64,000 nt of DNA from Candidatus Magasanikbacteria bacterium RIFOXYC2_FULL_42_28 (GCA_001784435.1 MFQZ01000009.1:11324-75323), one strand, 5' to 3'. Numbered from the stretch's first letter, positions 15,713 through 46,576 are shown. Notes: generated from the sequence alone by a model not told the origin. Numbers and translations are program-made.

Positions 15713-16828
15713 CTACTGCCGTATCGGCATCACAATATACAAATAACTCTCATCTTTCTCCGGCGCGAGTACGCACGGGCTGTCGGCGTTAATCATCTTC
15801 ATGTACACCCGCTCACCGCGGATGCCATTGAGGCCATCCAACAAATAGCGATGGTTTAAGTTGATATTATTTTCTTCACCCACAATATCCGCGCTAATTT
15901 GGGAACTATATTCGCCGGTTTGGGTGGACGATGACGCGAGCGCGACGCTCTCGCCGGCGAATTTAAATACTACCGCATTAACACCGGTCGTAGAAAACAA
16001 ACTGGCGGCTTTTATTTCTTTGGTTAACTGCGCCAAAGACATACCAGCAGTAGTTTTAAAATCCTTGGGAATAATTTGAGTGTAATCCGGATATTTTCCG
16101 TCCACTAAACGCGACACTAATTGCGCGCCATCGTAATGAATCACTAATTGATTTTCATTAATTAAAATCCGCACGTTTTTTTCCGCTTCTGAGCTGGCCG
16201 CGGATAATAGATGATGGATTTCTTGCGCCGTGCGTCCAGGCACAATTGCTGAAAATGATTCTTCGCCTTGGGTTAATTTAATTTTTTTCTCGGCCAAGCG
16301 ATAACTGTCGGTGGAGGCCATGACAAGCCCTTTAAAACCTTCGGGGTTAAATGAGAAAAACACCCCGGATAATTCCGGACGAATATCGTTGCGCGCGAGC
16401 GCGGGGGTAACTTGCGCCAAACCATTTTTAAAATCTTCGGCTGACACGGTAAAACCATGGCCGTCTTTACTTTGAGGAACAACCGGGAAATCATCGGCCG
16501 GCGAACCCTTAATTTTGGTAGTGGCGCGATCACAGGTTACCACCAGTTCATTATTTACCAACTCCAAATCCACTTTTTCACCCGACAAGAAATTTACAAA
16601 ATCGGCCAATGTTCGTGCCGGCACGGTAAACTGACCTGGCTCATCCACCTTGGCTCGCAAATACGCCACCATTGCCAATTCTAAATTAGTGGCGACTATT
16701 TCCACGGTTTGGGTGTCGGCTTTAATTAAAACATTTCCCAAAATCGGCAGATTAATATTTTTTCCCGCTATCCCACCCACGAGAGATAACACGAGCGCTA
16801 AATTGTCCTTGGTGCATGATAATTTCAT
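15713..16828 (-). CDS. dnaN: DNA polymerase III beta sliding clamp
   Basis: 371 aa in three-domain beta-clamp layout. The N-terminus MKLSCTKDNLALVLSLVGGIAGKNINLPILGNVLIKA is typical. Confidence 0.9.
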   Translation of the reverse strand: MKLSCTKDNLALVLSLVGGIAGKNINLPILGNVLIKADTQTVEIVATNLELAMVAYLRAKVDEPGQFTVPARTLADFVNFLSGEKVDLELVNNELVVTCDRATTKIKGSPADDFPVVPQSKDGHGFTVSAEDFKNGLAQVTPALARNDIRPELSGVFFSFNPEGFKGLVMASTDSYRLAEKKIKLTQGEESFSAIVPGRTAQEIHHLLSAASSEAEKNVRILINENQLVIHYDGAQLVSRLVDGKYPDYTQIIPKDFKTTAGMSLAQLTKEIKAASLFSTTGVNAVVFKFAGESVALASSSTQTGEYSSQISADIVGEENNINLNHRYLLDGLNGIRGERVYMKMINADSPCVLAPEKDESYLYIVMPIRQ

Positions 16829-16832
16829 ATAA

Positions 16833-17088
16833 TTTATTTATTTTTTGGTAGTGTATTGGTTTATTATATCTAATTAATAGTAATAATAAGGGTGGGGATA
16901 GTGGGGATAATTTCGTTTTTTATTTTATCTTAGCCAATTTAGGAGTGGATAATTTTTTTTATTTTTTAATAACTATGATGTGAGTTTGGGGATAACTATT
17001 TGGGTTTGTTTATTTTAAAAATTTGGTGGGGATAGAGGTGTGAGGGTGGGGATAAACTATACGAGTTATCAACAAAGTTATACACAAT
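16833..17088. promoter_or_regulatory. oriC-like region: cluster of six or more DnaA boxes (TGGGGATAA / GTGGATAA) with an AT-rich unwinding stretch
   Basis: GGTGGGGATAGTGGGGATAA, AGTGGATAA, TTGGGGATAA and GGTGGGGATAG...GGTGGGGATAA lie between dnaN and dnaA. An AT-rich stretch is at 16905-16980. Confidence 0.6.
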
Positions 17089-18462
17089 CTAAACATTATT
17101 AATGTATAATTTTTGCTTAATTAAGTCAATCTCTTGCTTTAATTTAATATCATTTTCTACCTCTCTTTTGATTTTTTCATAAGCATGCATAGCGGTAGTG
17201 TGGTCGCGTCCGCCCAATTCGTCACCAATGGTGGGAAACGAGGTTTTTAATTCTTCGCGCAACATAAACATGACAATTTGGCGCGGGTTAGACAAGCGCT
17301 TTTCCCTATTTTTACTGGTAATTTCATCAAAATTCACATTATAAAACTCACAAACAGCATCAATTACTTGGCGAGGAGCCACCGCATGGCGCATGGAACC
17401 GACAGATAGGCCGGTTAAGAGTGTTTTGATTGATTCTTCGTTTGGTTCCAGGTGTTTTAGGTCGTGGTAAGCGATAATTTTGTTAAGCGCGCCTTCTAAT
17501 TCGCGGATATTGCTTTGGATGGACAGGGCGATTAATTTAATTAATTTTTCTTCTAAAGGAAAGTTTTTTTCAATGGTTTTTTTTCCTAAAATCGCTACGC
17601 GGGTTTCAAAATCAGGCGCCGCCACATCCACGATCATCCCCCACTCAAAACGTGATTTTAAACGGTCTTCCAAGGCCGGAATGGCTTTGGGTGGTCGGTC
17701 AGAAGTTAGGATTACTTGTTTGTTGGCTTGGTGCAGTTCATTAAAAGTGTGGAAAAATGATTCTTGGGTGCCGTCTTTGCCGGCGATAAACTGGATATCG
17801 TCAATTAACAGCGCGTCGGCGGTCCGATAATGATCTTGAAAATTTTTGGCCTCGCCCCCTTTCATTGACGAAATGTAATCATTGGTGAATTTTTCCGCGC
17901 TCACATAGACAATTTGATAATGGGGATTTTTTTTGATTATTTCATTGCCGATTGCTTGGAGCAGGTGGGTTTTGCCTAAACCAACGCCACCGTAGATGAA
18001 AAGCGGGTTGTAGGCCTCGCCCGGGCGATTAGAAACAGCTTGGGCGGCCGCAAACGCGAGCTCAGTGCCACGGCCGACCACAAAATTATCAAAACTATAT
18101 TTGGGATTAAGAGTAAAGCCACCGCTAGTTGGTGTGGTTGCCGGTTTGGTTACGGTCTCGGGTGGTATTTCGGTGTTGGGGGCGGGCGCGGCGCAGGCCT
18201 CGGCAATATTTTTGATGCTATCTATTTTGTATTCTAATTTTTTAATCGGTTTTTCTGTTACTCTTTCTAATGATTTGATAATATGATGATGATATTTTTT
18301 TTCAATCCAGGCCTGGCTGAATGTGCTCGGAACGCAAACCACTACCTGGCCTTCTTGCAGGGTGGTAATGCCGGTATTTTTAAACCAAGTGTTAAAATTG
18401 GCCTTGGAAACCATTAATTCCAGTTCGGCGAGGACGGCTTGCCAGATTTCAAGGTTATTCAT
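17089..18462 (-). CDS. dnaA: Chromosomal replication initiator DnaA
   Basis: GGVGLGKTHLLQAIGNE, the Walker B/sensor regions, and a C-terminal DNA-binding domain ending in the HTH. Confidence 0.95.
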   Translation of the reverse strand: MNNLEIWQAVLAELELMVSKANFNTWFKNTGITTLQEGQVVVCVPSTFSQAWIEKKYHHHIIKSLERVTEKPIKKLEYKIDSIKNIAEACAAPAPNTEIPPETVTKPATTPTSGGFTLNPKYSFDNFVVGRGTELAFAAAQAVSNRPGEAYNPLFIYGGVGLGKTHLLQAIGNEIIKKNPHYQIVYVSAEKFTNDYISSMKGGEAKNFQDHYRTADALLIDDIQFIAGKDGTQESFFHTFNELHQANKQVILTSDRPPKAIPALEDRLKSRFEWGMIVDVAAPDFETRVAILGKKTIEKNFPLEEKLIKLIALSIQSNIRELEGALNKIIAYHDLKHLEPNEESIKTLLTGLSVGSMRHAVAPRQVIDAVCEFYNVNFDEITSKNREKRLSNPRQIVMFMLREELKTSFPTIGDELGGRDHTTAMHAYEKIKREVENDIKLKQEIDLIKQKLYINNV

Positions 18463-18570
18463 AGAAAAATCATTTATAGTGTTCGTATTTTACCATGAAA
18501 ACAAAGTTATCCACAACCACGGATAATTCCGTTTTTTGGCTTAATTGGGGATAAGTTGGGGATAAGTGTT
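18463..18570. promoter_or_regulatory. Second DnaA-box cluster upstream of dnaA (TTATCCACA at 18507-18515, TGGGGATAA x2 at 18546-18565)
   Basis: A perfect consensus box plus two variants. This is the typical dnaA autoregulatory/origin arrangement. Confidence 0.55.
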
Positions 18571-18617
18571 ATAATATCAAAATATAAATATCAAAAATCA
18601 AAATTCGACCGTTGGGC

Positions 18618-18646
18618 TTGACAAAACCACAAAAATGTGATATAAT
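18618..18646 (+). promoter_or_regulatory. sigma70 promoter (TTGACA-17-TATAAT) for rpmH-rnpA-yidD
   Basis: TTGACA at 18618-18623 and TATAAT at 18641-18646. Confidence 0.6.
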
Positions 18647-18677
18647 AAAGGGGTGATTATTAAAAATATTCAAAAAT

Positions 18678-18854
18678 ATGGTGAAACGTACATATCAGCC
18701 AAAGAAACGCAAACGTTCTAAATCCCATGGTTTTAGAAAACGTATGAAAACCAGCGCCGGTCGGGCGGTTTTGGCTCGTCGTCGTGCCAAAGGACGCAAA
18801 AAATTAACTGTTTCCGATGAAAAGAAAGGCAAATTGTTGCGTAAAAGCCGTTAA
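18678..18854 (+). CDS. rpmH: 50S ribosomal protein L34 (with a C-terminal extension)
   Basis: [45 protein letters not shown]..., 58 aa. It is not in the track because it is under 60 aa. Confidence 0.8.
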
Positions 18855-18934
18855 AATTACTAAAATTAGCGAAAAATCCGGTTTTATGCCGGATTTTGTT
18901 TTTGGATGGTGTTTTGTGTGGTATAATATAATAT

Positions 18935-19339
18935 ATGTTAACCGATCAATATCGTTTAAAAAAAGTGCGGGATTTTAATATGCTCATGGAGCGTGGACGC
19001 TGGGCAGGCGGGGCGCTTTTTACAGTTAAATGGCTTAAATTAGCGGACCCTGGCATCAGATTGCCAAAGGCAATCGGTGCAGGGCCAGAATTGAAAAAAT
19101 TTATAGAGCAATTGCGTTTTGCTTTTGTGGTGGGTTTGAAGGTGAGTAAAAAGGCGGTTGAGCGCAATCGCTTGAAACGTCAGATGCGGGAGGTTGTTAG
19201 ATTGATGATTAAGGATGGGCGAGTTAAAAGCGGGTTTTATGTGATGGTGGTAGCGAAGGGCGAGGCGCTGGGGAAAGAGTATGGTAAAATTGAGAAAGAA
19301 ATTGAGGGTTTATTAAAGAGGATCGGCGTGGCAAGTTAA
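18935..19339 (+). CDS. rnpA: Ribonuclease P protein component
   Basis: 134 aa, basic, located just after rpmH. The RNR-like motif KKAVERNRLKRQMRE is present. Confidence 0.75.
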   Translation: MLTDQYRLKKVRDFNMLMERGRWAGGALFTVKWLKLADPGIRLPKAIGAGPELKKFIEQLRFAFVVGLKVSKKAVERNRLKRQMREVVRLMIKDGRVKSGFYVMVVAKGEALGKEYGKIEKEIEGLLKRIGVAS

Positions 19340-23575: not shown

Positions 23576-24310
23576 TTACAACTTTTCCCAAATTAATTCA
23601 AATATAATTTTAAAAGTGTTGGCTAAATGATGGCTTGTGATCACAGTACCAAAAATAGGTTGTTCCAAAGTGAGTAGCGCGATGTTGTTGTCCCAAATCA
23701 ATATATCAGTTGGCTGGTCGCGGTATTTTTCCGGCAGAAATTTAAAATTATACATACCGCCAATTATTTTTTTGGTCTCTTCGGTGGCGCGCTGCCGGGA
23801 TGCGCCGGTTACTATATCAATTAGAGCGATATTATTTTCTTTTACTTTTTGTTCAAAATATATCAAAAAATCGCCTTCCAATTTTGATAATAAATTTGTG
23901 GACCCAAAGGCGTAAATTTTTTTGTCATTAGTCGTCAGAGATGATAAATAAATTTCTTTAACTTGTTCCCAGCCGTCAAAAAACAATACCCGTGGTTTAT
24001 TTTTGTTGGTGGTGTATAAAGCACGCAAGTCCGGGAGCATTTTTTCCAGATCAATTTTTTGTTTTTCCCAGTTTAAGATTAGCGCCTGCGGGTCGGCCGC
24101 CAAATAAACCTTGCGTTTACGAACTAATTCCGATTTCACCAGTCCGCGATTTTGCAAAGAGCGCAATACATTATAGGCGTTGGTGCGAGCGATACCAGTG
24201 CCAAGCGCGATTTGGGGCGGGGTTGATTGGCCTTGCCCAAGCAGATATAAGTAAATGTCAGCTTCATTATCGTTTAAGTCGGCGTTTTTTAGTTGGGTTT
24301 TTAGGTCCAT
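23576..24310 (-). CDS. TrmB-family HTH transcriptional regulator
   Basis: The N-terminal EADIYLYLLGQGQSTPPQIALGTGIARTNAYNVLRSLQNRGLV is TrmB-type wHTH. It is divergent from the ABC transporter operon. Confidence 0.55.
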   Translation of the reverse strand: MDLKTQLKNADLNDNEADIYLYLLGQGQSTPPQIALGTGIARTNAYNVLRSLQNRGLVKSELVRKRKVYLAADPQALILNWEKQKIDLEKMLPDLRALYTTNKNKPRVLFFDGWEQVKEIYLSSLTTNDKKIYAFGSTNLLSKLEGDFLIYFEQKVKENNIALIDIVTGASRQRATEETKKIIGGMYNFKFLPEKYRDQPTDILIWDNNIALLTLEQPIFGTVITSHHLANTFKIIFELIWEKL

Positions 24311-30362: not shown

Positions 30363-30459
30363 TGATTGAAGTTTAACCGATTTTTTGGAAAAAGTCAAGT
30401 TTAACAGGTCTTTTCTTTTTAAAATCTTTATGATAGGGTAATTGGTGAAAGGAGGGCGG

Positions 30460-30621
30460 ATGAAATATTTCGCCCAATGGTATGATCCCGTTTTGGCCGC
30501 TTCTGTTGTAGGTGGCGTCGTGTTCGGCGTTGCCGGCAGTGTTGTGGTCGCAACTGCGGTCGGCTTGGTGGCAGGGGCCGGATTTCTCGGCCTGCTCATC
30601 AAGCACGATTCCAACCGTTAG
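30460..30621 (+). CDS. Small hydrophobic protein (53 aa) in a GC-rich islet
   Basis: AGGAGGG lies 5 nt upstream. The ORF reads MKYFAQWYDPVLAASVVGGVVFGVAGSVVVATAVGLVAGAGFLGLLIKHDSNR and is under 60 aa, so it is not in the track. Confidence 0.35.
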   Translation: MKYFAQWYDPVLAASVVGGVVFGVAGSVVVATAVGLVAGAGFLGLLIKHDSNR

Positions 30622-30644
30622 GAGGTTTTGTGTTAACCGATTTT

Positions 30645-30773
30645 ATGGTACCGTCTGATGACATGCTGATCCCGTGCGCGACGATCATCGGTGTACTCAT
30701 CGGCGTACTCATCGCGTGGTTCGTCGTGGCGGGAGATGTTCGCCCTGTCTCTCGTCGTCCGCAGTCCAAGTGA
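30645..30773 (+). CDS. Small hydrophobic protein (42 aa), second gene of the mini-operon
   Basis: AGGAGG lies 13 nt upstream. The ORF reads MVPSDDMLIPCATIIGVLIGVLIAWFVVAGDVRPVSRRPQSK and is followed by the hairpin GGGGCGAAG...CTTCGCCCC. Confidence 0.35.
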   Translation: MVPSDDMLIPCATIIGVLIGVLIAWFVVAGDVRPVSRRPQSK

Positions 30774-30835
30774 CAGCCAACCTTTCACGGGGCGAAGATT
30801 TGAGGACCTTCGCCCCTAGTCCTAAATTTAAAATC

Positions 30836-30866
30836 ATCCCGACTAAGTTGGGATGATTTTTTTGTT
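30836..30866. terminator. Hairpin AAAATCATCCCGACTAAGTTGGGATGATTTTTTTG
   Basis: The same CCCGACTAAGTxGGG core as the 15663 terminator and the family 1 internal hairpin. Confidence 0.5.
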
Positions 30867-32080
30867 TAAAGTAATGGGATAAAAAGTTCGTTGGTTTTTT
30901 CGTTGTTGTCAACCCCGTTAAAATATAAACAATAAGTCGCGGAATTCGGGTAGTCCAGCTTAAAAGCAGTGGGCAGGCGGCACTTGCTTTGGTTGGATTT
31001 TATTTCCAAGGCGATATTTTGACCATTGCCGATGTCTAAAATAAAATCCACTTCATTCTGATTTTTATCTCGCCAATATTGAGGTGAATATTTGTTTTTG
31101 ACAAATTGCATGTAGGTGGCGTTTTCCAAGAGTGGGCCGTTATCGGCGCGTTTATCAAAAATTTGAAAATTATTAATAATGTGATTGCGCAAGCCGGTAT
31201 CAAAAAAATAAACTTTTTGATTTTTTACTATTTCTTTTCTTTTGTTATTATAAAATGGGCGGATTAAACTGATGATGTAGGTCTTGCTAAGAAAGTTTAG
31301 GTATTTTTTTAAGGTATGATAGGCGAATTCGGATATTTCCGTCAGTTCTTTATATTCAATTAAATTACCAGTTTGCAGAGCTAGTGCTTTGATTAATTTC
31401 CCTAATTTATAATCATCCACTAACCCCAAAATATCCTTTACATCTCTTAAAAAATAAGTGTTATAAATATTTTTTAGCACTTCCTTTTTTTCGGCCTCTG
31501 TTTTTGATAATATTACCGCCGGGTATCCACCCCAAATCGCGTATTCTTCAAAATATTTTTTTAAAATTATATTTTGCTCGGCAGTCAAAGAATAATTTTT
31601 AGTGTTTTCCCAATCAATTTTATTTTTAGTATAGATACTGCAATATTTAGGGTCGCGACATTGCAAATACTCTTCAAAATTGAATGGCAACATTTCTAAA
31701 ACAAACACTCGGCCGACCAGAAATTTGGCCGCCTTGATAGTAAGATCAAGTGCTGACGAGCCGGAAATAATTATTTTGGTAGGATGTTCGTCGTAGATAT
31801 ATTTTAAAAGCTTTCCGCCGTTTTTAGCATACTGGAATTCATCAATAAAGACATAATCGTTGCCAGCGATGTGGGTACTAATAAATTCTTTGATATTTTT
31901 CTCAAATAAATTAAGCGTGTCTTGATCTTCAAATGTTAAAAATACCGCTTTTTTTAAATCGTTATAAATTTTTTTAATAGTGGTAGTTTTACCGCATTGG
32001 CGGGGGCCAATAAGCGCGATTATTTCCGGTCTTTTTAAATACCCAATAATCTCGGCTTCTATTTTTCGCTTAATATACAT
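30866..32080 (-). CDS. AAA+ ATPase (AAA_14 + DUF4143 type)
   Basis: The Walker A is IALIGPRQCGKTT, the Walker B is YVFIDEFQY, and the C-terminal domain is typical of the COG1373 family. Confidence 0.65.
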   Translation of the reverse strand: MYIKRKIEAEIIGYLKRPEIIALIGPRQCGKTTTIKKIYNDLKKAVFLTFEDQDTLNLFEKNIKEFISTHIAGNDYVFIDEFQYAKNGGKLLKYIYDEHPTKIIISGSSALDLTIKAAKFLVGRVFVLEMLPFNFEEYLQCRDPKYCSIYTKNKIDWENTKNYSLTAEQNIILKKYFEEYAIWGGYPAVILSKTEAEKKEVLKNIYNTYFLRDVKDILGLVDDYKLGKLIKALALQTGNLIEYKELTEISEFAYHTLKKYLNFLSKTYIISLIRPFYNNKRKEIVKNQKVYFFDTGLRNHIINNFQIFDKRADNGPLLENATYMQFVKNKYSPQYWRDKNQNEVDFILDIGNGQNIALEIKSNQSKCRLPTAFKLDYPNSATYCLYFNGVDNNEKTNELFIPLL

Positions 32081-36187: not shown

Positions 36188-38905
36188 ATGAAGAAACTTG
36201 TTATTATAGATGGGAACGCAATAATACATAGGGCCTATCACGCCATTCCGCCCATGAACACCAAAAACGGGATGATGGTCAATGCGGTGTATGGGTTTAC
36301 TTCCATGTTGTTGCGCGTTTGGAAAGATTTAAAGCCGACACATATTGCCGTCACTTTTGATATGCGCGGTCCGACTTTTCGGCATGAAAAATTTAAGGAA
36401 TACAAAGCCACGCGCGTGAAAGCGGATCAGGAATTGTATGATCAGATTCCTTTGGTGCACAATGTTGTTCGTGCTTTTAATATTCCGATTTATGAAAAGG
36501 CCGGTTATGAGGCCGACGATGTGATTGGCACGGTCGCTCGCATGGTAGAAAATAAAAAAGAGGTTGAGACGTATATTGTGACGGGTGATAAAGATACTCT
36601 ACAGTTGATTGAGCCAGGGGTGAAAGTTTTTACCTTGCGTAAAGGGATGAGTGATACGGTAATTTATGATGCCGAGGGTGTAAAAGAAAAATTTGGATTT
36701 TTACCGGATAAAATGGTGGATTACAAAGCGCTGGCCGGTGATGCGTCGGATAATATTCCGGGGGTGCCGGGGGTGGGAGAGAAGACGGCGACAGATTTGA
36801 TTCAGAAGTTTGGGGGGATTGATGAGATTTATGATAATATCAAAAATCAAAAATCAAATATCAAAGATATTAAGGCGGGTGTCTTGAAAAAATTGATTGA
36901 CGGCGAAGAGTCGGCGCGGATGAGTTTTGAACTTGCGACGATTGACCGCAATGTTCCGGGGGTGGATTTTAAGTTGGAAGATTGCGTGGCAAAAGAATTT
37001 GACCGCGAGAAAGTGGTTAAGATTTTTCAGGAGTTGGAGTTTATGTCGTTGTTGAAGCGTTTACCCGGCGAAGCATTAGCGAAGACGGGGTTGCCGGGGG
37101 CGAGTGGGGATGGAGATCCCTCGCTTGACACTCGGGATGACAAACAAAAAAAAGTCCGAGCGAAATTTAAAGTTGATGAAATAAAGACAAAAGATGAAGT
37201 TGAGAAATTAGTTGAGCAGATTCGTAAAACAAAATCATTTGCCTGCCGTGAGGCCACGGCTGGACGTGAAGTTTATAATTCAGAATTGTTTGGTGTGGCG
37301 GTTATTGTTTCTGGCGCCGGATATTTTATTAGTGAAAAATTATTAAAAGAATTTTTGCCGGTATTTGAATTTTCGGATTGTGAATTCGTTGGTCATGATT
37401 TAAAACAGTTAATCAAAATTTTAAAACTGCAGGGCGTGGAAATAAAAAATAAATTGTTTGACACGATGATCGCGTCGTATCTGCTGGAACCGGGCAGTCG
37501 GGCGCATGACAGCGCCAGTATTGTTTTGAAAGTGTTAGGCCAAGAATTACCAGCCGGTGCCGGGCAGAATAGTTTGTTTGGGGCGGATATGCTTGCGGTA
37601 ACACAAGAATTATACCAACTATCTTTGGCGGCCGAAAAATTAAAAAAAGAATTAGTCGCGATTAGCGATTTTGGTTTAATGGAAAAAATAGAGATGCCAC
37701 TTTTGCCGGTCCTCGCGCAAATGGAATTAAACGGTATTGCCGTGGATTTAAAATTACTACAAAAATTATCCGAACAAGTGACGGCGGAAATTAAAACCGT
37801 GAGCGCGACTATTTTTAAATTGAGTGGAACGGAATTTAATATCTCGTCGCCGACACAATTGCGCGAAGTGCTGTTTGAAAAAATGGAAATTCCAGTGGAA
37901 GGAATTAAAAAAGGCAAAACCGGTTTGTCCACTTCTGCCGAACAGTTAGAAAAATTGCGCGGTCAACACCTAATCATTGAACATATTGAAAATTATCGCG
38001 AATTGGAAAAATTGCGCAATACCTATATTGATGTTTTGCCGACTTTGATAAATAAAAAGACCGGTCGGATTCACACCACTTTTAATCAGGCGGTCGCGGC
38101 GACTGGGCGCCTGTCATCGTCTGATCCAAATTTACAAAATATTCCCATTCGCACGGAGTTGGGGCGCAAGATCCGCAAGGCCTTTGTGGCCGAAGATGGC
38201 AATGTGCTTATTTCCGCCGATTATTCGCAAATTGAATTGCGCGTGGTGGCATCACTCGCCGAGGATAAAAAAATGATGGAAATTTTTGAGGCTGGTTTGG
38301 ATATTCACGCGGCGACAGCAGCGGCGATAAATCATGTGGATTTAAAAGATGTTACCAAGGACATGCGTCGCGCGGCCAAGGAAGTAAATTTTGGCGTGTT
38401 GTATGGCATGGGCGCATATGGCTTGGCTTGGCGGGCCGATATTCCCCAGTGGCAAGCCAAAGATTTTATTGATAAATATTTTAGTGAATTTAGTGGTGTG
38501 AAAAAATATTTAGACGCGACTTTGGAATTTACCAAAAAAGAGGGATACTGCGAAACACTGTTTGGTCGGCGCCGGTATATTCCGGAATTAAACGCCAGCA
38601 ACCACCAATTGCGGATGGCCGGCGAACGGATGGCGATTAATCATCCGATTCAGGGGACGGCCGCGGATTTGATTAAGATGGCGATGATAGAAATATCAAA
38701 ATGTAAATATCAAAATGAAAAATTATTGAGCGACGATGTGCGAATGATATTACAAGTGCACGACGAATTGGTGTTTGAAGTAAAAAAAGAATTGGCTGAT
38801 GAAGTCGGTAAAAAGGTAAAAGAAATTATGGAGGGTGTGGCCAAATTGCGCGTGCCGATTGTGGTGGAGGTGAATGTTTCTAAAAGTTGGGGGGAGATGA
38901 AATAA
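36188..38905 (+). CDS. polA: DNA polymerase I (5'-3' exonuclease, 3'-5' exo-like and polymerase domains)
   Basis: 905 aa. The polymerase motifs are RRAAKEVNFGVLYGM (motif B) and QVHDELVFEV (motif C). The N-terminal FEN-like domain is present. Confidence 0.9.
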   Translation: MKKLVIIDGNAIIHRAYHAIPPMNTKNGMMVNAVYGFTSMLLRVWKDLKPTHIAVTFDMRGPTFRHEKFKEYKATRVKADQELYDQIPLVHNVVRAFNIPIYEKAGYEADDVIGTVARMVENKKEVETYIVTGDKDTLQLIEPGVKVFTLRKGMSDTVIYDAEGVKEKFGFLPDKMVDYKALAGDASDNIPGVPGVGEKTATDLIQKFGGIDEIYDNIKNQKSNIKDIKAGVLKKLIDGEESARMSFELATIDRNVPGVDFKLEDCVAKEFDREKVVKIFQELEFMSLLKRLPGEALAKTGLPGASGDGDPSLDTRDDKQKKVRAKFKVDEIKTKDEVEKLVEQIRKTKSFACREATAGREVYNSELFGVAVIVSGAGYFISEKLLKEFLPVFEFSDCEFVGHDLKQLIKILKLQGVEIKNKLFDTMIASYLLEPGSRAHDSASIVLKVLGQELPAGAGQNSLFGADMLAVTQELYQLSLAAEKLKKELVAISDFGLMEKIEMPLLPVLAQMELNGIAVDLKLLQKLSEQVTAEIKTVSATIFKLSGTEFNISSPTQLREVLFEKMEIPVEGIKKGKTGLSTSAEQLEKLRGQHLIIEHIENYRELEKLRNTYIDVLPTLINKKTGRIHTTFNQAVAATGRLSSSDPNLQNIPIRTELGRKIRKAFVAEDGNVLISADYSQIELRVVASLAEDKKMMEIFEAGLDIHAATAAAINHVDLKDVTKDMRRAAKEVNFGVLYGMGAYGLAWRADIPQWQAKDFIDKYFSEFSGVKKYLDATLEFTKKEGYCETLFGRRRYIPELNASNHQLRMAGERMAINHPIQGTAADLIKMAMIEISKCKYQNEKLLSDDVRMILQVHDELVFEVKKELADEVGKKVKEIMEGVAKLRVPIVVEVNVSKSWGEMK
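37109..37144 (+). mobile_element. Family 1 repeat half-copy embedded in-frame in polA
   Basis: ATGGAGATCCCTCGCTTGACACTCGGGATGACAA translates as GDGDPSLDTRDDK, in the linker between the 5'-exo and 3'-exo-like domains. Confidence 0.55.
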
Positions 38906-38908
38906 ATT

Positions 38909-39046
38909 ATGATTATCTATCTATCCGGCCCCGACACCTTTCGGAGTCGGCAATATTTAAAAGAACAAGTGGAGAAGCTTAAAATTGCCCACTACTACGA
39001 TGGATACGAGAAAATTTTAGAAGATATTTTGGCTAATATATAATAA
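38909..39046 (+). pseudogene. Truncated duplicate of the holA 5' end (45-aa remnant)
   Basis: MIIYLSGPDTFRSRQYLKEQVEKLKIA matches MIIFIHGPDTFRSRQYLKEQVEKFKIA of holA at 43001. The two are ~90% identical at the DNA level over 83 bp, and the copy starts 3 nt after the polA stop. Confidence 0.6.
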
Positions 39047-39120
39047 AAATCGTCCTCTTGACAATTAGTATACTCATAAGGTATAATACTCACGAGTATA
39101 CTAATTAAAGTATCTATCAT

Positions 39121-40536
39121 ATGTCATTTATAAATCGTGAACAAGAGTTAAAAATGCTAAATGAAAAATGGCAATCAAATATCGCTCAGTTTTTTATTAT
39201 TTATGGTAAACGCCGCGTTGGCAAGACTGAGTTGATTAAACAATTTATCAAAGACAAACCAGCGTTATATTTTTTAGCCGATAAGCGCACGACGGCGGAT
39301 CAATTGCGGGAGCTGGGGCAAATAGTGGGAAATTATTTTAAGGATGAAATTCTGATTAGCAATGGTTTTAGTGATTGGTTGGAAGTATTTCTATATTTAA
39401 AAACAAAGACAATCACCGAACCTTTGATTTTGGCGATAGACGAATATCCGTATTTGGTTGAAAATGATAAATCCACCAGTTCGCTTTTTCAAAAGGGTTG
39501 GGATGAATATTTAAAAAATACTAAAATATTTTTGATACTGTCCGGGTCCAGCATCGCCATGATGGAATCGGAAACGCTGAACCAAAGCGCGCCGTTGTTT
39601 GGCAGGCGTACCGGTCAAATTTTGGTTGACCCATTAAATTTTTTGCAATCGCGCCAATTTTTTCCAGAGAAAAATTTTTCTGATTTTTTAAATATCTACA
39701 CTATTACCGGTGGCATGCCGGCGTATTTGAAACAGTTTGAAGAGGGCGCGGGAATGTCCGAAGAGATTAAGAATAAAATTTTTAACAAAACCGCTTTTTT
39801 ATACAACGAAGTGGAGTTTACCCTGAAAGAAGAGTTGCGTGAACCAAAAAATTATTTAGCAATTTTGCGCGCCATTGCACTCGGGAAAAGAAAGTTAAGT
39901 GAAATTGTTAATGAAGTCGGGATGGACACAGCCGCCACCAACAAATATCTTTCGGTGCTTATTAATTTGCGTTTGGCGGAACGGGAGGTGCCGGTAACCG
40001 AGAATAAGCCGGAGAAGTCGCGACGCGGTTTGTATAAAATTTTGGATAATTTTTTTGGATTTTGGTTTCAATATATTTTTCCTTATAAAAGTTATTTGGA
40101 AATGGGCAATTATAATTATGTTTTGGAGAAAATGTTTAGCGGTTTAAAATATAATGATAAGGTTAATTCCGGTTTCAAACTTATTGTCGCGCAAGTTTAT
40201 GAACGCGTCGCGATTGAATTGCTGCCCGCTTGGCAAGATAAAATTTTCTCGTTTGAGCGCGTTGGTCGTTATTGGGACAATAATCAAGAAATTGATGTGG
40301 TGGGGATAAGTTTGCCGGAAAAGAAAATAATTTTCGGTGAGTGTAAGTGGTCCGAAAAACCAGTGGGGACAGATATTTATGAAGAATTAAAAAAGAAAGC
40401 GGAAAAAGTGGAGTGGAATTTGGGCGATAGAAAAGAATTTTATATTTTATTTAGTAAGAGTGGTTTTACCGAGGCAATGATAAAAATAGCGAAGAGCGAA
40501 GGTGTGTTTTTAGTGGAGAAGGATACTATGAAGTAA
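39121..40536 (+). CDS. AAA+ ATPase (archaeal-ATPase/DUF234 type)
   Basis: The Walker A is IIYGKRRVGKTEL and the Walker B LAIDEYPYLV. The C-terminal DUF234-like domain is present. Confidence 0.65.
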   Translation: MSFINREQELKMLNEKWQSNIAQFFIIYGKRRVGKTELIKQFIKDKPALYFLADKRTTADQLRELGQIVGNYFKDEILISNGFSDWLEVFLYLKTKTITEPLILAIDEYPYLVENDKSTSSLFQKGWDEYLKNTKIFLILSGSSIAMMESETLNQSAPLFGRRTGQILVDPLNFLQSRQFFPEKNFSDFLNIYTITGGMPAYLKQFEEGAGMSEEIKNKIFNKTAFLYNEVEFTLKEELREPKNYLAILRAIALGKRKLSEIVNEVGMDTAATNKYLSVLINLRLAEREVPVTENKPEKSRRGLYKILDNFFGFWFQYIFPYKSYLEMGNYNYVLEKMFSGLKYNDKVNSGFKLIVAQVYERVAIELLPAWQDKIFSFERVGRYWDNNQEIDVVGISLPEKKIIFGECKWSEKPVGTDIYEELKKKAEKVEWNLGDRKEFYILFSKSGFTEAMIKIAKSEGVFLVEKDTMK

Positions 40537-40652
40537 AGATAATTATCCAACAAAAAACCAACAGTGATAAGCCGTTGGTTTTTTGTTATCTTCTTGGTAC
40601 CAACAAGAATGGTGCGCACGGGGTGAAGACGGTGCGCGCGTCTGTGGGGTGG

Positions 40653-41195
40653 TCAAAATGCATATGACACCCCGGGTTGAAAGAGCAAGGTCCAGATGCC
40701 GGTGCCGAGCGTGGTGCCCGGGCCGACCACGAGCGCCAGTGACAAGCCGTTGCCGATTTTGACACTGGTGCCGAGTCCGCCACCGATGAAGTGGGAGTGG
40801 GGTGTGTTGTTGTACCAGTAGTTAAACTGGTACACGACCGAGGTGCTCACTCCGACTCGATCGGTGAGCGCGTATGACACTCCGATTCCAGCGCGTGGGG
40901 CAGGACGGAAGGTGTCATTCGGCGTTTTGAAGCCGATGAGGGCGGACACACCGAAGTTATTCGGCAGTTTCCACCCGAGCGACAGGTGGAGCCGGGTGGA
41001 AACCTCGCCTGGGGAGGTCGCACCGTCTTTAAAGACGATGATCATCCCTTCGGCCATCGCCACCGAGACGCTCGGAGTGGTCGGGTTGGGCTCTTCACCG
41101 GCGTTGGCGCACATTGAGATCATCAAAACTCCGATGATGGTTACCAGCCAGATCATTCCACCCGTCAGAAAACAAGTTTTCGCCATCCTATTCAT
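40653..41195 (-). CDS. OmpW/OmpA-like small beta-barrel outer-membrane-type protein (GC-rich, likely foreign)
   Basis: The signal peptide is MNRMAKTCFLTGGMIWLVTIIGVLMISMCANA. Alternating amphipathic beta-strands end in ...FQPGVSYAF (an aromatic beta-signal). GC is ~56% against a ~40% background. Confidence 0.45.
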   Translation of the reverse strand: MNRMAKTCFLTGGMIWLVTIIGVLMISMCANAGEEPNPTTPSVSVAMAEGMIIVFKDGATSPGEVSTRLHLSLGWKLPNNFGVSALIGFKTPNDTFRPAPRAGIGVSYALTDRVGVSTSVVYQFNYWYNNTPHSHFIGGGLGTSVKIGNGLSLALVVGPGTTLGTGIWTLLFQPGVSYAF

Positions 41196-41336
41196 CTCAC
41201 CCTCCTTTTTGTAGAAGAACCTGCCGAGACCATCTCGACTTAGCATTATATCATAAAATAATATACATGTCAAGGGTTATTTGGCTAATATAAGGCAAAA
41301 AGTAGTCAAGTTTGTAATGATTAAACTAAAATTATC

Positions 41337-41365
41337 TTGACTTTTTTGGCTTTGTTTACTATAAT
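41337..41365 (+). promoter_or_regulatory. sigma70 promoter TTGACT-17-TATAAT
   Basis: TTGACT at 41337-41342 and TATAAT at 41360-41365. Confidence 0.5.
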
Positions 41366-41402
41366 ATTATTATCATAAAAATTATGACAGAAGTAATAAA
41401 AT

Positions 41403-42956
41403 ATGATTGAAAATCAATTAAAACAGTTGGGTTTTGGTAAAAATGAAATTAAAATATATTTGGCTTTGTTTGAATTAGGCAAATGTAAGGCGCATGAGGT
41501 AATTGTTCATACTGGTTTGCATCGCAATATTGTGTATCAAGATTTAGAGGATTTAGTTAAGCGGGGGTTGGTGACAAAAACTGAAGTTAAAAATGTTTTT
41601 GAATACAGCGCCAATAATCCCGAGGCATTAGTAGAGGAATTTGAAAACAAAAAAGAAATATCGCAAAAAATCGCCGAACAGTTAAAAGAAAAACAAATTG
41701 AAACACCGCGCGAGGTGGCGGTGTATGAAGGGGTGGATGGTTTGAAAAAAAGCCGAGCCAAAATTTTAAATTATCAATCCGGTGATGAAGTTTTTATTTT
41801 TGGCGCTGATTTAGAACCATCAATGGAAAAAGTAATGCGTAAAATTCACAAAAAACGCGAGGATGCTGGGATTAATATGAAAATTTTATACGACCAAAGC
41901 GCTAACAAATCGGATGTTGCTTGGCGTAATACATTGGAGCATAGTAAAGCAAAATTATTGCCATTTAGTCAAAAGTTTCCAATTTGGTTTGCTGGTATTG
42001 GAGAGCATTTGGAAATTGGTATACCACAACATAACAATCCCTTAATTTTTAATATTCGCAACCAAGAAGCAGTTGATGGTTTTAAAACTTTTTTTGATTA
42101 TTTTTGGAATCAAGAAAGCATAAGTTACCAAGGGATAGATGAAGTAGAGTCGGCCTATAATGAAATTTTGGAAAATTCGAGTAATGACCAGGATGTTGTG
42201 ATTTTTGCAGCTAAGCCAAGCGAGCAGAGAAGTTCTAATTTTAATTTAGAGTGGAATAAGCAATTGCGGAAAAAAGTTAAACGTTTGCGTTTGTTATATT
42301 ATGGCGCAAATGAAATTAATATCAGTAGGGCAAAAGAAATGTTGGACGTGGGCGCAGAAGCAAAAGTGAGTGGCACTAGCCAGTCGCTTCCAATTTCTAC
42401 AATTATTGCTGGTGATGTTGTGTTAACGGTGGTTTGGGATAAAAATCCAGCTTGTTTTAAAATAAAAAATAAAACAGTAGCTGATTCTTTAAAAAATAAT
42501 TTTGAATTATTGTGGAATCAGCAGGTTGGTGTTGAATCTGGCTTAGATCCATTGAAAAATATTATTTATGAAATGTTAGATGAATTAAATTCTGGGGAAG
42601 AGTATTGCGTGCTGGGTGCTTCGTATGGCCATGAGACCGGCGGGGTTCAAGAATTGTATGATAAATTTCATACCGACAGAATTAAAAAAGGTGTAGTGAC
42701 GAAAATGTTAGTTTATCGTGAATCATTTGAGCGGATAAAAAAACGGTTTGAGAGATGTGGTGATCAGTTTGGCAAAGTAAGCCAGTTGAAACAATATGGG
42801 TCTGCGCCGAAAATACCTATGCAAATTAATTTATATAATAACAAGGCATTTATAATTTTTTATGGCGAGGCTCCAACTGTAATTAAATTTAATCGGCCGG
42901 AATTTTTTGCCGGGTTTAAAACTTATTTTGATGAGCTGTGGAGAAAGGGTGGATAA
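41403..42956 (+). CDS. TrmB-family regulator, long form (paralogue of 23576..24310)
   Basis: The N-terminal NEIKIYLALFELGKCKAHEVIVHTGLHRNIVYQDLEDLVKRGLV is TrmB wHTH. A duplicated C-terminal sugar-binding-like domain is present. Confidence 0.55.
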   Translation: MIENQLKQLGFGKNEIKIYLALFELGKCKAHEVIVHTGLHRNIVYQDLEDLVKRGLVTKTEVKNVFEYSANNPEALVEEFENKKEISQKIAEQLKEKQIETPREVAVYEGVDGLKKSRAKILNYQSGDEVFIFGADLEPSMEKVMRKIHKKREDAGINMKILYDQSANKSDVAWRNTLEHSKAKLLPFSQKFPIWFAGIGEHLEIGIPQHNNPLIFNIRNQEAVDGFKTFFDYFWNQESISYQGIDEVESAYNEILENSSNDQDVVIFAAKPSEQRSSNFNLEWNKQLRKKVKRLRLLYYGANEINISRAKEMLDVGAEAKVSGTSQSLPISTIIAGDVVLTVVWDKNPACFKIKNKTVADSLKNNFELLWNQQVGVESGLDPLKNIIYEMLDELNSGEEYCVLGASYGHETGGVQELYDKFHTDRIKKGVVTKMLVYRESFERIKKRFERCGDQFGKVSQLKQYGSAPKIPMQINLYNNKAFIIFYGEAPTVIKFNRPEFFAGFKTYFDELWRKGG

Positions 42957-43000
42957 AGTGTTTTGCATAACATTGGGGAACATATTATAATGAGCTTACT

Positions 43001-43963
43001 ATGATTATATTTATACACGGCCCCGACACCTTTCGGAGCCGGCAATATTTAAAAGAACAAGTGGAGAAATTTAAAATTGCCCGCGATCCACAGGGGTATA
43101 ATGTTGTGTTTGCGGACGCGGTGAGCGACGAGCCGGGGAAAATTTTAGGGGAGATTTCCAGCGCGCCGTTTTTGGCAGATAAGAGAATGATTGTTGTAGA
43201 AAATATTTTGGCATGCAAGGATAAGGATTTTATGGCTACGCTCATTGAAATGGTAAAAAATAATAAAGTGCCGGAAAGTAATGTTGTTTTGTTTTGGCAA
43301 GGCGAAGATAAATCAAAAATAAAAGAAGTGGATGAATTGGATAAATTATTGAAAAAAGAAAAATACGCGAAAGAATTTGATATGTTAACGGGCGCGCAAT
43401 TGTCCGTTTGGATAAAACAGGAATTTGTTAAATCAAAAGCGACTGTCAGTATGCCGGCGTTAAATTTTTTGGCGCAGAACGCGGGTGGTGATATGTGGCG
43501 ATTGTCGTCTTTAATCGCGCAATTGTCGGCCTATGCCACTGGGCGCGAGGTCGGCGTGGAAGGTGTAAAATTATTTTTGGATGAAAAGGTTGATGATAAT
43601 GTTTTTAATATGGTGGAAGCGGTCGTGTCGGGCAATCGTAAGCAGGCGTATAAATTATTAACCGAGCAAAGGCGGTTAGGCGAAGAGGACGGAAAATTAT
43701 TTGGTTTGATATTGTGGCAATTTCGGATTTTGGTGAATTTAAGGTCGTTGTTTGAAACTGAAGATAATTTAACGGCTGATCAAATGGCTAAACAACTTGG
43801 TTTGCATCCGTTTGTCGTGAAAAAGAATTTGGCACTGGTAAAACGAATGAGCTCGGCACGCTTAAAAGAAATTTACGAGATGCTTTTGGATATTGATAAA
43901 AAAATAAAAACCGGGCGGGGGGACTTGGGGTTGTTGGTTGATGTGCTGGTGGGACGCTTATGA
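43001..43963 (+). CDS. holA: DNA polymerase III delta subunit
   Basis: 320 aa with the HolA N-terminal fold IFIHGPDTF...FLADKRMIVVEN and a C-terminal helical domain. Confidence 0.75.
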   Translation: MIIFIHGPDTFRSRQYLKEQVEKFKIARDPQGYNVVFADAVSDEPGKILGEISSAPFLADKRMIVVENILACKDKDFMATLIEMVKNNKVPESNVVLFWQGEDKSKIKEVDELDKLLKKEKYAKEFDMLTGAQLSVWIKQEFVKSKATVSMPALNFLAQNAGGDMWRLSSLIAQLSAYATGREVGVEGVKLFLDEKVDDNVFNMVEAVVSGNRKQAYKLLTEQRRLGEEDGKLFGLILWQFRILVNLRSLFETEDNLTADQMAKQLGLHPFVVKKNLALVKRMSSARLKEIYEMLLDIDKKIKTGRGDLGLLVDVLVGRL

Positions 43964-44469: not shown

Positions 44470-44745
44470 GGTTATCCTATAAAGCTGCAGATGGTGGACC
44501 TCGGCCTCTAAAGTCCACCAGTGTCGCGTCGACACGCCTTGGGGCGGCCCGTGCACGCCCCGAATGTCTTTTTGTGTGGCGTTGGCCAGCAAGCTTACCT
44601 GTGGTAAGACAAAATTTGAGAGGACGCATGAGGCATCAACTCAGTAATTTTGTCCCGGCAAGCCCGGACCGGTCGATTGGTCACCCTCCTTGTGCAACCG
44701 CGCGAGCACCATAGAACAGTAGAAGCCGAGGTATTTATATTGTAC
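44470..44745. other. GC-rich (~58%) non-coding block with strong hairpins; unidentified structured RNA or foreign DNA remnant
   Basis: GGGGCGGCCCGTGCACGCCCC, TGGTGGAC...GTCCACCA and GTCCCGGCAAGCCCGGACCGGTCGATTGGTCACC. The 88-aa track ORF is Arg/Pro/Ala-rich and probably an artefact. Confidence 0.2.
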
Positions 44746-45856: not shown

Positions 45857-45882
45857 ATTATTTTTTGGCTAATTCAAAATTG

Positions 45883-45954
45883 TCTCCTCACCAGGAATTG
45901 AACCTGGATCTAGACGTTAGGAGTGTCTTATTCTATCCGTTGAACTATGAGGAG
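45883..45954 (-). tRNA. tRNA-Arg (CCU)
   Basis: On the minus strand: CTCCTCA-TA-GTTC-AACGGATA-GAAT-A-AGACA-CTCCTAA-CGTCT-AGAT-CCAGG-TTCAATT-CCTGG-TGAGGAG-A. CCA is not encoded. Confidence 0.75.
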
Positions 45955-46576
45955 AAATGATTTTGTTGACCTGTGTATTTATAGCAGAAATTTTCTTAAA
46001 AAGCAACCCAGCTTTCTTGACCCTAACTCGACACATGCCAAACTTAAGTTTTCCGATTTTTTTGCCTTTAAGTACATTTATACTTACATTGTCCCACAAA
46101 TCCAGTTTAGTAATGGTTGACCAATGGCGAATGCACGCGTCTTTGTCCAGATCTTCATAAATTCTAATTGAAATCTTAAAATCCAAATCTTTTACGTGAA
46201 ATTCAGTTCGCAATATATCCATAAATACTGCCACCATTTTTGAATCGGTGTTTGAGAAACTGAAGTCGCTTTTACTTCCCTCTGCCCAATATAATGCGCT
46301 GGCGAAAAGCATTCTTTCCCGATGGCTTAATTCAGTGAGTGTTGTAGTTGCGTGTAAGATGGCTTTGTCCCAATTTCTCTCGGACATGATTTTGCTCGCA
46401 TTTCTACGCGCCAGCCAGCGTTGTTTAAATTCAGGCAAAATAGTAGTATTTTTTGAAATTCGCCACGCAGTTGCACGATTTACTCCCAAGATTTGGCTAA
46501 TCTCAGGCATACTTCGGCCGTGTTTTCTTAATTCGACAATTTTATCTTTTATTTCTTGTTTGATTAGTTTCGACAT
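45917..46576 (-). CDS. HTH + LAGLIDADG-like (single-motif) homing-endonuclease-family protein
   Basis: The N-terminal HTH is ELRKHGRSMPEISQILGVNRATAWRI. Downstream, LFASALYWAEGSKSDFSF resembles the LAGLIDADG/EG motif. The 3' end of the ORF overlaps the first 38 nt of tRNA-Arg. Confidence 0.4.
   Translation of the reverse strand: MSKLIKQEIKDKIVELRKHGRSMPEISQILGVNRATAWRISKNTTILPEFKQRWLARRNASKIMSERNWDKAILHATTTLTELSHRERMLFASALYWAEGSKSDFSFSNTDSKMVAVFMDILRTEFHVKDLDFKISIRIYEDLDKDACIRHWSTITKLDLWDNVSINVLKGKKIGKLKFGMCRVRVKKAGLLFKKISAINTQVNKIISPHSSTDRIRHS

Follow-up and report, generated by a model that had tools for sequence, protein, structure and literature searches.

How do accessory genes enter the genomes of bacteria of the candidate phyla radiation (CPR, or Patescibacteria)? 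These genomes are small and poor in classical mobile elements, and the organisms are uncultured, so that the gain of accessory and defence genes is largely inferred. The question is raised in concrete form by a stretch of 64,000 nucleotides (nt) of an uncultured groundwater bacterium, Candidatus Magasanikbacteria bacterium RIFOXYC2_FULL_42_28 (GCA_001784435.1 MFQZ01000009.1:11324-75323), called here the window, with positions counted from its first letter. In it, the interval between polA (DNA polymerase I) and holA (delta subunit of DNA polymerase III) is occupied by a 4.1-kb block with three accessory genes, specifying an ATPase-nuclease, a GC-rich beta-barrel protein and a TrmB-type regulator, and the first 83 nt of holA occur twice, once on each side of the block. 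This block, referred to below as the islet, is of a known and fairly ordinary kind, namely an islet of accessory genes acquired through recombination at a hotspot. With slightly better than even chances, it entered the ancestral polA–holA junction in one step, anchored by homology on one side. The locus is a clean natural example of an islet that came to lie between two essential replication genes with no integrase involved and with its scar preserved, and like scars at three other loci of one shared candidate defence gene suggest that recombination-based gene gain may be general in CPR bacteria. The islet itself would add to the genome a candidate anti-phage ATPase-nuclease, a surface or pore beta-barrel and a probable regulator of the barrel.

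The duplicated start of holA

A search of the window for repeats returned the segment 38908-38990 (+) as a direct repeat of 43000-43082 (+), with 75 of 83 positions identical (90%), a spacing of 4092 nt and, within the repeat, perfectly identical blocks of 21 and 29 nt. Local alignment of the two copies gives a score of 126, against a mean of 18 and a maximum of 31 in 300 shuffles. Each copy begins 1 nt before its ATG. The right copy is the start of the working holA (43001-43963, +), the right core flank of the islet, which is intact: it carries the Pfam domains DNA_pol3_delta and DNA_pol3_delta_C, and its product matches TIGR01128 from end to end (200.4 bits for a cutoff of 80, residues 2-317). 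The left copy opens a pseudo-open reading frame, or stub (38909-39043, +), whose start lies 3 nt past the stop of polA (36188-38905, +; Pfam DNA_pol_A at 512 bits and 5′-3′ exonuclease domains), the left core flank. The stub consists of holA codons 1-27, then of the junction and finally of the outermost left part of the ATPase cassette, and its 44-amino-acid (aa) product has no Pfam match. An insertion of ~4 kb at the holA start with an 83-bp direct duplication of ~90% identity, as proposed in an initial annotation of this DNA, is borne out by these figures; the remnant of 45 aa at 38909-39046 described there stands as an open reading frame (ORF), but its length is 44 codons (to 39043), the stop having been counted in the earlier figure.

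Three changes in the stub (I5L, H6S and F24L) are non-conservative and affect residues conserved in every HolA examined. They are common to the stub of the closest public relative, the metagenome-assembled genome (MAG) RIFOXYD2_FULL_41_14 (locus L001, with a HolA 83% identical), which is the same ORF with a further internal deletion of 51 nt. Because of the changes at conserved residues and of the independent deletion in L001, the stub is a decaying pseudogene. The repeat-stub structure is not an assembly artefact, since the exact stub ORF is found in the same context, 100% identical, in at least eight contigs from independent assemblies, and since its decayed version occurs in the second species, where it was assembled twice (L001 = L047). 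An apparent continuation of the homology past nt 83 of the stub, with a 36-nt deletion (39010-39029 versus 43138-43157, 17/20), was rejected, as at 39011 the left end of the cassette begins, which is common to the copies of other genomes.

The ancestral junction and the entry of the islet

Relatives were gathered by a HolA search in one genome per species and then in metagenome contigs, which gave about 45 related loci. In four Magasanikbacteria species (L012, L039, L040 and L042) polA directly abuts holA, at a distance of 6-7 nt, and in a Saccharibacteria outgroup (L020) the end of polA meets the start of holA. The polA–stub junction of the window (GAGATGAAATAAATTATG) matches the junctions of the relatives with abutting genes: in these genomes it reads GAGATGAAATAAAAT-ATG, which is essentially the GAGATGAAATAAATT-ATG of the window. 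With this synteny and this matching junction, polA immediately before holA is likely to be the ancestral state, as had been supposed. The stub thus sits at a junction of ancestral type, from which it follows that the 4.1 kb are inserted DNA and that the left copy is the start that holA originally had, stranded in its native place. On a neighbour-joining tree of HolA, species with abutting genes do not separate from those with inserts but are mixed with them, which is the pattern that a recombination hotspot would produce.

The two sides of the islet differ. To the left, homology breaks off abruptly at 38990/38991, and the following 20 nt (38991-39010), the joint between holA-derived and cassette-derived DNA, match neither holA nor most cassette copies. 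To the right, TrmB, promoter and holA are continuous, and their joint is that of most relatives in which holA does not abut polA, which fits a donor origin of the right copy. One homologous, continuous side and one abrupt joint form the signature of a homology-anchored insertion. A near-consensus sigma-70 promoter is predicted before each islet gene and before holA, the latter being TTTGCA-18-TATAAT (42962-42991, +), 9 nt upstream of the ATG. Most loci with holA not abutting polA have a TATTACAAT-type -10 box 9-10 nt before the holA ATG (no clear -10 box was seen in L007, L009, L045, L051 and L056), and the conservation of this box ~9 nt before the ATG (window 42962-43003 and its equivalents in L002-L052) implies a leaderless or near-leaderless transcript. 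In the polA-abutting genomes, transcription of holA must come by read-through from polA.

From these features, a donor structure, an order of events and a recombination pathway may be reconstructed. A recipient of the ancestral type, with an intact holA starting ATGATYATCTATCTATCC next to polA, would have taken up DNA from a related Magasanikbacterium. The donor fragment would have carried, in this order, the ATPase-nuclease cassette, the barrel gene with TrmB, the holA promoter and the start of holA, its accessory DNA lying already beside holA. Donor holA would have paired with resident holA, leading to a homologous crossover, and the other end of the fragment would have been joined illegitimately 83 nt inside resident holA, with 38991-39010 as the illegitimate joint; circularisation of the fragment and a single crossover within the first 83 nt would be an equivalent route. 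As outcome, the first 83 nt of the resident gene would be left behind polA as a dead stub of 44 codons, holA would be rebuilt with a donor-type 5′ end and a promoter of its own, and 4,092 nt of accessory DNA would be gained. An islet-encoded recombinase would be unnecessary, host RecA-type recombination being enough; neither recA nor competence genes are held in the 64 kb of the window. The two repeat copies more likely stem from separate genomes, one from the recipient and one from the donor, and the duplication of the target proposed in the initial annotation is, if taken in the transposon sense, not sustained. Recombination between the two 83-nt copies could precisely delete the islet and restore the polA–holA junction. 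No empty-site variant was encountered: all eight stub-carrying contigs (8/8) are occupied; L037, where the end of TrmB also lies upstream of holA, and the short contigs L073-L075 have the occupied state.

A composite islet

The islet is, judged by the distribution of its genes, a composite of two parts with separate distributions and not one foreign unit. Promiscuous mobility is confined to the ATPase cassette, and the barrel/TrmB pair is in many Magasanikbacteria a usual neighbour of holA, bringing a conserved promoter of holA with it. The divergent pair is found directly upstream of holA in L002, L003, L004, L006, L008 and L056, with no ATPase and no second holA start; in L005, L011 and L044 the region is cut, or TrmB alone is visible upstream of holA. 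Apart from L001, no relative has a stub, as searched with each locus’s own holA start. It had been recognised that relatives carrying the same three genes without a duplicated holA start would speak for an ancient gene order; no such relative was found, since L001, the only one with all three genes, has the duplicated start, and those with two of the three lack it. The identity of the genes between the copies (ATPase, GC-rich barrel resembling outer-membrane proteins, TrmB) had been correctly read, Pfam and AlphaFold2/Foldseek agreeing with it. Their description as foreign to the polA–holA context applies to the mobile ATPase cassette but not to the barrel/TrmB pair.

The wide occurrence of this pair upstream of holA in the family is what speaks for a history without any insertion, in which the gene order would be ancient and fixed and the similarity of the two holA starts fortuitous, or in which the contig would be a chimera of assembly. 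The alignment score of the repeat, far above the maximum of its shuffles, the stub placed exactly at the ancestral junction, and the identical structure in at least eight independently assembled contigs and a second species leave hardly any probability to such a history. The core idea of a genomic islet that recombined in at the start of holA holds.

The two parts of the islet differ also in age. Between the window and L001, third-position identity (counted in codons with identical amino acids) amounts to 0.99 for TrmB, 0.97 for the barrel gene and 0.89 for the ATPase gene, against 0.78 for HolA, 0.74 for PolA, 0.71 for S20 and 0.70 for RmuC in the flanks; an M23 peptidase stands at 0.48. A block of 2.2 kb (40858-43008), ~99.5% identical between the two genomes, ends at the holA start, and near-identical copies of TrmB are confined to the window species and L001 (one cluster at ≥90%, the next at 56%). 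Islet identity far above that of the flanks indicates a passage of the islet between the two species that is younger than their divergence, and above all so for the barrel/TrmB part. The route of this exchange was most plausibly homologous recombination through the flanking core genes, with polA and holA serving as recombination arms for a later transfer of the islet (most clearly its barrel/TrmB part) between sister species. This genome shares the insertion with the sister species L001, the insertion being either older than the split of the two or transferred across it.

The distinct and much younger history of the barrel/TrmB block (0.97-0.99 versus 0.89 in third-position identity) is also what would be left by two steps. 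The cassette would first have entered ~83-100 nt into holA, giving stub, cassette and holA in a row, and the barrel/TrmB pair with the holA promoter would later have recombined in between cassette and holA. The barrel/TrmB/promoter/holA arrangement is indeed common in relatives, no more than 20 nt lie between the stub and the cassette’s left end, and at L067/L068, L026-L029 and L064 (see below) a duplicated gene end brackets the cassette alone. This course of events is nevertheless rather unlikely: it requires two rare events, the second of them with no obvious left-hand homology arm; it would have left holA without a promoter of its own after the first step; and the stub–cassette–holA intermediate is absent among the ~45 related loci.

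The ATPase cassette

The mobile cassette (39011-40536, +) is made of a promoter (TTGACA-18-TATAAT, 39058-39087), an 18-nt palindrome (39063-39080/39089-39106) and an ORF (39121-40536). The encoded protein combines ATPase_2 (PF01637, 94 bits), a winged helix-turn-helix (wHTH) and DUF234 (PF03008, 68 bits), the latter corresponding to COG1672 in the PD-(D/E)XK nuclease family (PMC3424549), and contains the ATPase-nuclease motif EIDVVG...IFGECKW. It matches the PDC-S27 model of PADLOC (PDLC04984; E=8.9e-47, residues 2-450) and has the domain order of that family, an abundant ATPase-nuclease defence candidate that is itself unvalidated (PMC12988326). The gene is thus a candidate single-gene anti-phage system.

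Copies elsewhere are 80-82% identical to the cassette at the DNA level, with a match limited to 39011/39027-40524 (promoter, palindrome and ORF). The protein is 80-87% identical in MAGs labelled Uhrbacteria, Azambacteria, Magasanikbacteria and others; for contrast, PolA is ~65% identical within Magasanikbacteria. The search for further copies that had been recommended placed the gene in at least 11 other, unrelated neighbourhoods, several of them beside restriction-modification genes, and the GC content of the cassette is constant (0.32-0.39) whatever that of the host flanks. Its ends are ragged, the upstream flank being shared to different lengths and the C-terminal tails differing between copies. 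Precise ends were considered and rejected, as the common right end at 40524 is the window’s own junction only, and other copies share longer, different tails and flanks. A phage or plasmid vehicle was likewise rejected, with no relative in IMG/VR and with identities that do not exceed 33% in phage records or 44% on plasmids. In the literature searched, no description was found of the near-identity of a PDC-S27 gene across CPR lineages or of gene-end scars around it.

Scars around the cassette at other loci

The flanks of the cassette in its other contexts were tested by shuffle-controlled local alignment. In L067/L068, the final 83 nt of the PIF1/WYL helicase gene upstream of the cassette recur on its far side, the two copies being 88% identical (z=39); in L067 these are at 1936-2018 and 3621-3703, and the far copy is a small pseudo-ORF with the same end (RVFRVDRILEMREG followed by the stop). 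In L026-L029, it lies between two copies of the last 41-48 nt of the iPGM gene, 83% identical (z=14; L026 5852-5899 and 7414-7461), and 8-nt overlaps are read from the sequence at both joints in L026. In L064/L065, the end of a peptidase S8 gene, stop included, recurs as an exact copy of 18/18 nt (z ~6; L064 2699-2716 and 4476-4493). At all three loci, one edge of the duplicate is a gene terminus (the stop), and the length into the gene varies. Duplications of gene ends, of 18-83 nt, thus exist at four independent loci including the window, and 6 of 11 contexts have no flanking repeat. Immediately around the cassette of the window, no significant repeat was detected (score 20 versus a shuffle mean of 17). 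The ragged ends, the variable length of the duplicates, their divergence of 10-17% and their edge at a gene terminus fit a linear fragment from a related donor.

Two further candidates were set aside. The flank repeats of L035 and L066 are not target duplications but a dispersed G-rich repeat, of which L035 has a third copy, and a 9-nt match (GAGTCGGCA) between the repeats of the window and of L067 is too weak for a shared core. The G-rich repeat (…GGCGAGGGGGGGGGCGACGAGCGAGCGAATTGAGGGG…) is present beside the cassette in three unrelated CPR genomes (L021 5817-5900; L035 1738-1811, 3753-3821 and 5441-5510; L066 1-56 and 1695-1748), and may be either a repeat family of its own or a piece of an ancestral cassette that was longer.

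The recurrence of such scars raises the possibility that the cassette moves itself. The ATPase-wHTH-PD-(D/E)XK protein would cut beside gene ends and drive its own copying-in, sometimes with neighbouring genes, leaving long target duplications of variable length. Nuclease and DNA-binding domains are present (PMC3424549), one gene recurs in at least 11 contexts with 80-87% identity between CPR lineages, host gene ends are duplicated at four independent loci, and cassette GC is constant whatever the host GC. If this were true, PDC-S27-type genes would be self-propagating single-gene elements in CPR bacteria, which would explain this identity, these contexts, the four scars and the recent sweep of the islet. 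The idea is, however, quite improbable in view of the ragged ends that differ between copies, of the 6 of 11 contexts without a flanking repeat and of duplicates diverged by 10-17%, as expected from two genomes and not from the copying of one target; in addition, defence is the role for which the family is otherwise a candidate (PMC12988326), and the pattern is the same as for the entry of any foreign gene into these genomes.

One-step, homology-anchored entry remains the favoured account, and several points weigh against it. At the illegitimate joint there is only a weak indication of microhomology, the candidate being TAAAAT(A)TGCC (~10 nt) shared with the cassette flank of L033 (score 40 versus a shuffle maximum of 33). 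Among the relatives, the cassette was found upstream of the barrel/TrmB pair in no candidate donor, the window and L001 themselves excepted, nor was there any closely related empty-site genome with the allele of the stub. If the circular route is assumed, 83 nt form a short anchor for a RecA-dependent crossover. Lastly, 2.4 kb of other genes separate the cassette from the right copy, which fits a two-step history equally well, and at the other loci the duplication hugs the cassette directly.

Recombinases and possible attachment sites

A Pfam search of all ORFs of at least 120 aa found no match to Phage_integrase, Resolvase, Recombinase or DDE in the 64-kb window, whether in the islet or beside it, so that the search for an integrase or recombinase that had been advised gave none. 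Inverted repeats pairing the ends of the islet were not detected by the repeat search. With neither a transposase nor terminal inverted repeats, and with duplications that are variable (18-83 nt) and diverged, the islet does not qualify as a transposon or an insertion sequence; nor, with no recombinase gene in or beside it within the window, does it qualify as an integrase island.

It could still be asked whether the 83-nt copies are attL and attR sites of an element that inserts at the 5′ end of holA and brings a substitute for that end, its tyrosine or serine recombinase having been lost or acting in trans. Direct repeats do flank the insert, the element-borne gene end does restore the target gene, the repeat does include identical blocks of 21 and 29 nt, and a gene for an Xer-like recombinase is located 2.3 kb from the cassette copy of L021. 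Besides the missing recombinase, other observations make such integration an unlikely account: the parts of the islet have separate distributions, the other repeats bracketing the cassette derive from different host genes with no shared core, the relatives with the barrel/TrmB pair beside holA show no second holA start, and viral contigs (IMG/VR) contain no relative of the ATPase.

The barrel gene, the hairpin and the regulator

The GC-rich gene of the islet (40653-41195, −; 180 aa) starts at an ATG preceded by a ribosome-binding site and has a predicted promoter at 41273-41245 (match 12/12). Its GC content is 0.62 (62%), and the GC content at its third codon positions (GC3) is 0.73. No Pfam, NCBIfam or PADLOC match was obtained with the protein. 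Its AlphaFold2 model (pLDDT 90.8, from an alignment of 29 representatives) displays a helix at 5-30 (signal) followed by eight long antiparallel strands, and Foldseek ranks Ail, NspA, OmpA-TM and OmpX at the top of the PDB (probability 1.0, TM-score 0.53-0.66). The C-terminus (...SYAF) ends on an aromatic residue, so that the signal peptide, the eight strands and the C-terminal aromatic residue of OmpX/Ail-type proteins are all found in the predicted barrel. The product is predicted to be a secreted OmpX/Ail-like eight-stranded beta-barrel, located at the surface or acting as a pore. An outer membrane is generally assumed to be absent from CPR bacteria.

A word-indexed homologue search returned the protein itself only, and an exhaustive search was needed to find relatives; this profile-free search gave a family of 48 representatives among 1.8 billion proteins. 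Homologues occur at L002 6337-6858, L003 7341-7850, L004 8070-8564, L006 7175-7762 and L008 4145-4816 and 7198-7716. Those examined have a GC3 of 0.68-0.84 in genomes of 36-43% GC, against 0.30-0.45 for their neighbours, and this high GC3 persists despite proteins that are only 35-46% identical to each other. In Magasanikbacteria, they are always divergently paired with a TrmB-type regulator. An OmpX-like family with GC-rich codons and a TrmB partner may interest the field of CPR cell envelopes and host attachment more than the insertion does.

Between the ATPase and barrel genes lies a hairpin with a T-run (40549-40587), a perfect inverted repeat with a 14-bp stem (AAACAAAAAACCAAC...GTTGGTTTTTTGTT), which is likely a bidirectional terminator for the two genes. 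It is in single copy in the window, and related copies are found beside GC-rich genes in L001 (5455-5495 and 7550-7590), L008 (3053, 4010 and 7084) and L014 (9737), conserved at 84-92% between species versus 35-46% identity for the proteins of the GC-rich genes that it terminates. In L014, all that is left is probably a hairpin and a piece of the GC-rich gene with an internal deletion. A supposed duplication of the polA 3′ end with the hairpin to the right of the cassette (40528-40584 versus L001 5441-5492, 84%) was rejected, the similarity being that of the recurrent hairpin. In L001, the polA stop is separated from the holA stub by an extra GC-rich insert of ~520 nt (5450-5972), which fills exactly this interval; it opens on a copy of the hairpin, contains a 95-aa hydrophobic ORF (GC3 0.74) and is delimited by AAAGTT...AAAGTT. 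GC-rich units with a hairpin seem to have been inserted independently.

The regulator gene (41403-42956, +; 517 aa) is divergent from the barrel gene and has its predicted promoter at 41337-41365. The protein has an N-terminal TrmB winged helix (PF01978, 46.3 bits for a cutoff of 25.6), and its likeness to sugar-sensing TrmB does not extend over the full length (NCBIfam NF040851, 33.6 bits for a cutoff of 600, N-terminus only). Three internal repeats of ~140 aa follow each other, each with a terminal F..YFD.LW-like motif, and the DNA repeats are at 42073, 42481 and 42907. It probably controls the divergent barrel gene. Family members are of ~380, 515, 650 and 790 aa, as if repeats were gained or lost, and a second, short TrmB-type gene is present at 23576-24310 of the window.

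Relation to known systems

Entry of linear foreign DNA through one homologous and one illegitimate end, or through circularisation and a single crossover, is established (PMC3240628), and a comparable scheme has been put forward to explain the orphan modules displaced at type VI secretion system (T6SS) and Rhs loci (PMC5361080). In homology-facilitated illegitimate recombination and insertion-duplication (PMC3240628; PMC5361080), as in the islet, there is no element-encoded recombinase, a piece of the anchor gene is left and breakpoints are ragged. Such recombination is known from laboratory crosses of naturally transformable bacteria and from E. coli conjugation, whereas the case of the islet is inferred from natural scars in CPR genomes, and the duplicated anchor segment of the cassette loci is only 18-83 nt long. 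In the orphan modules of T6SS effector-immunity and Rhs loci (PMC5361080), the arriving module is likewise placed beside a conserved gene and the old end is left as a remnant; there, the displaced pieces are 3′ toxin/immunity parts that can stay functional, whereas here the piece is the dead 5′ start of an essential replication gene.

Integrase-type islands insert into gene ends (att sites in tRNA, tmRNA or protein genes) and carry a replacement end. They share with the islet flanking direct repeats and a target gene that stays whole thanks to a duplicate of its end, and differ from it by their integrase; the islet has none, has no att core conserved across cassette sites and is built of parts that are differently distributed. 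At the level of single genes, the ATPase shares its domain order with PDC-S27 and matches the model of that family strongly. The predicted barrel resembles OmpX, Ail, NspA and OmpA-TM in signal peptide, strand number and C-terminal aromatic residue, and departs from them in having no Pfam match, a CPR host and the high GC3 described above.

Other features of the window

The genes dnaN, dnaA and rnpA are at 15713-19339, ~20 kb upstream of the islet, which places the locus near the likely replication origin. A second ATPase-nuclease gene (30866-32080, −), of AAA_14+DUF4143 type, matches PADLOC PDC-S01 (E=3.5e-91). Within the region 30441-32080, it is accompanied by a GC-rich island of 380 nt with two small hydrophobic ORFs (30442-30621 and 30630-30773), and a weak 22-nt T-rich direct repeat (30854 and 32476) is found on both sides of the gene.

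To the right of the islet, a GC-rich segment of ~265 nt (44470-44735, −) between rmuC and rpsT is absent from L001. It has no Rfam match even at E≤1, an RNA fold z-score of -4.8 on the minus strand and -2.2 on the plus strand, and a promoter-like site (TTGATA-17-TACAAT) just upstream, and is possibly an undescribed small RNA. Further on, a gene for a 219-aa helix-turn-helix (HTH) protein with weak Cbp1/HTH_23-like matches (45917-46576, −) overlaps tRNA-Arg (45882-45954). Its absence from L001 and its presence in L008 (65% identical) point to another indel between close relatives.

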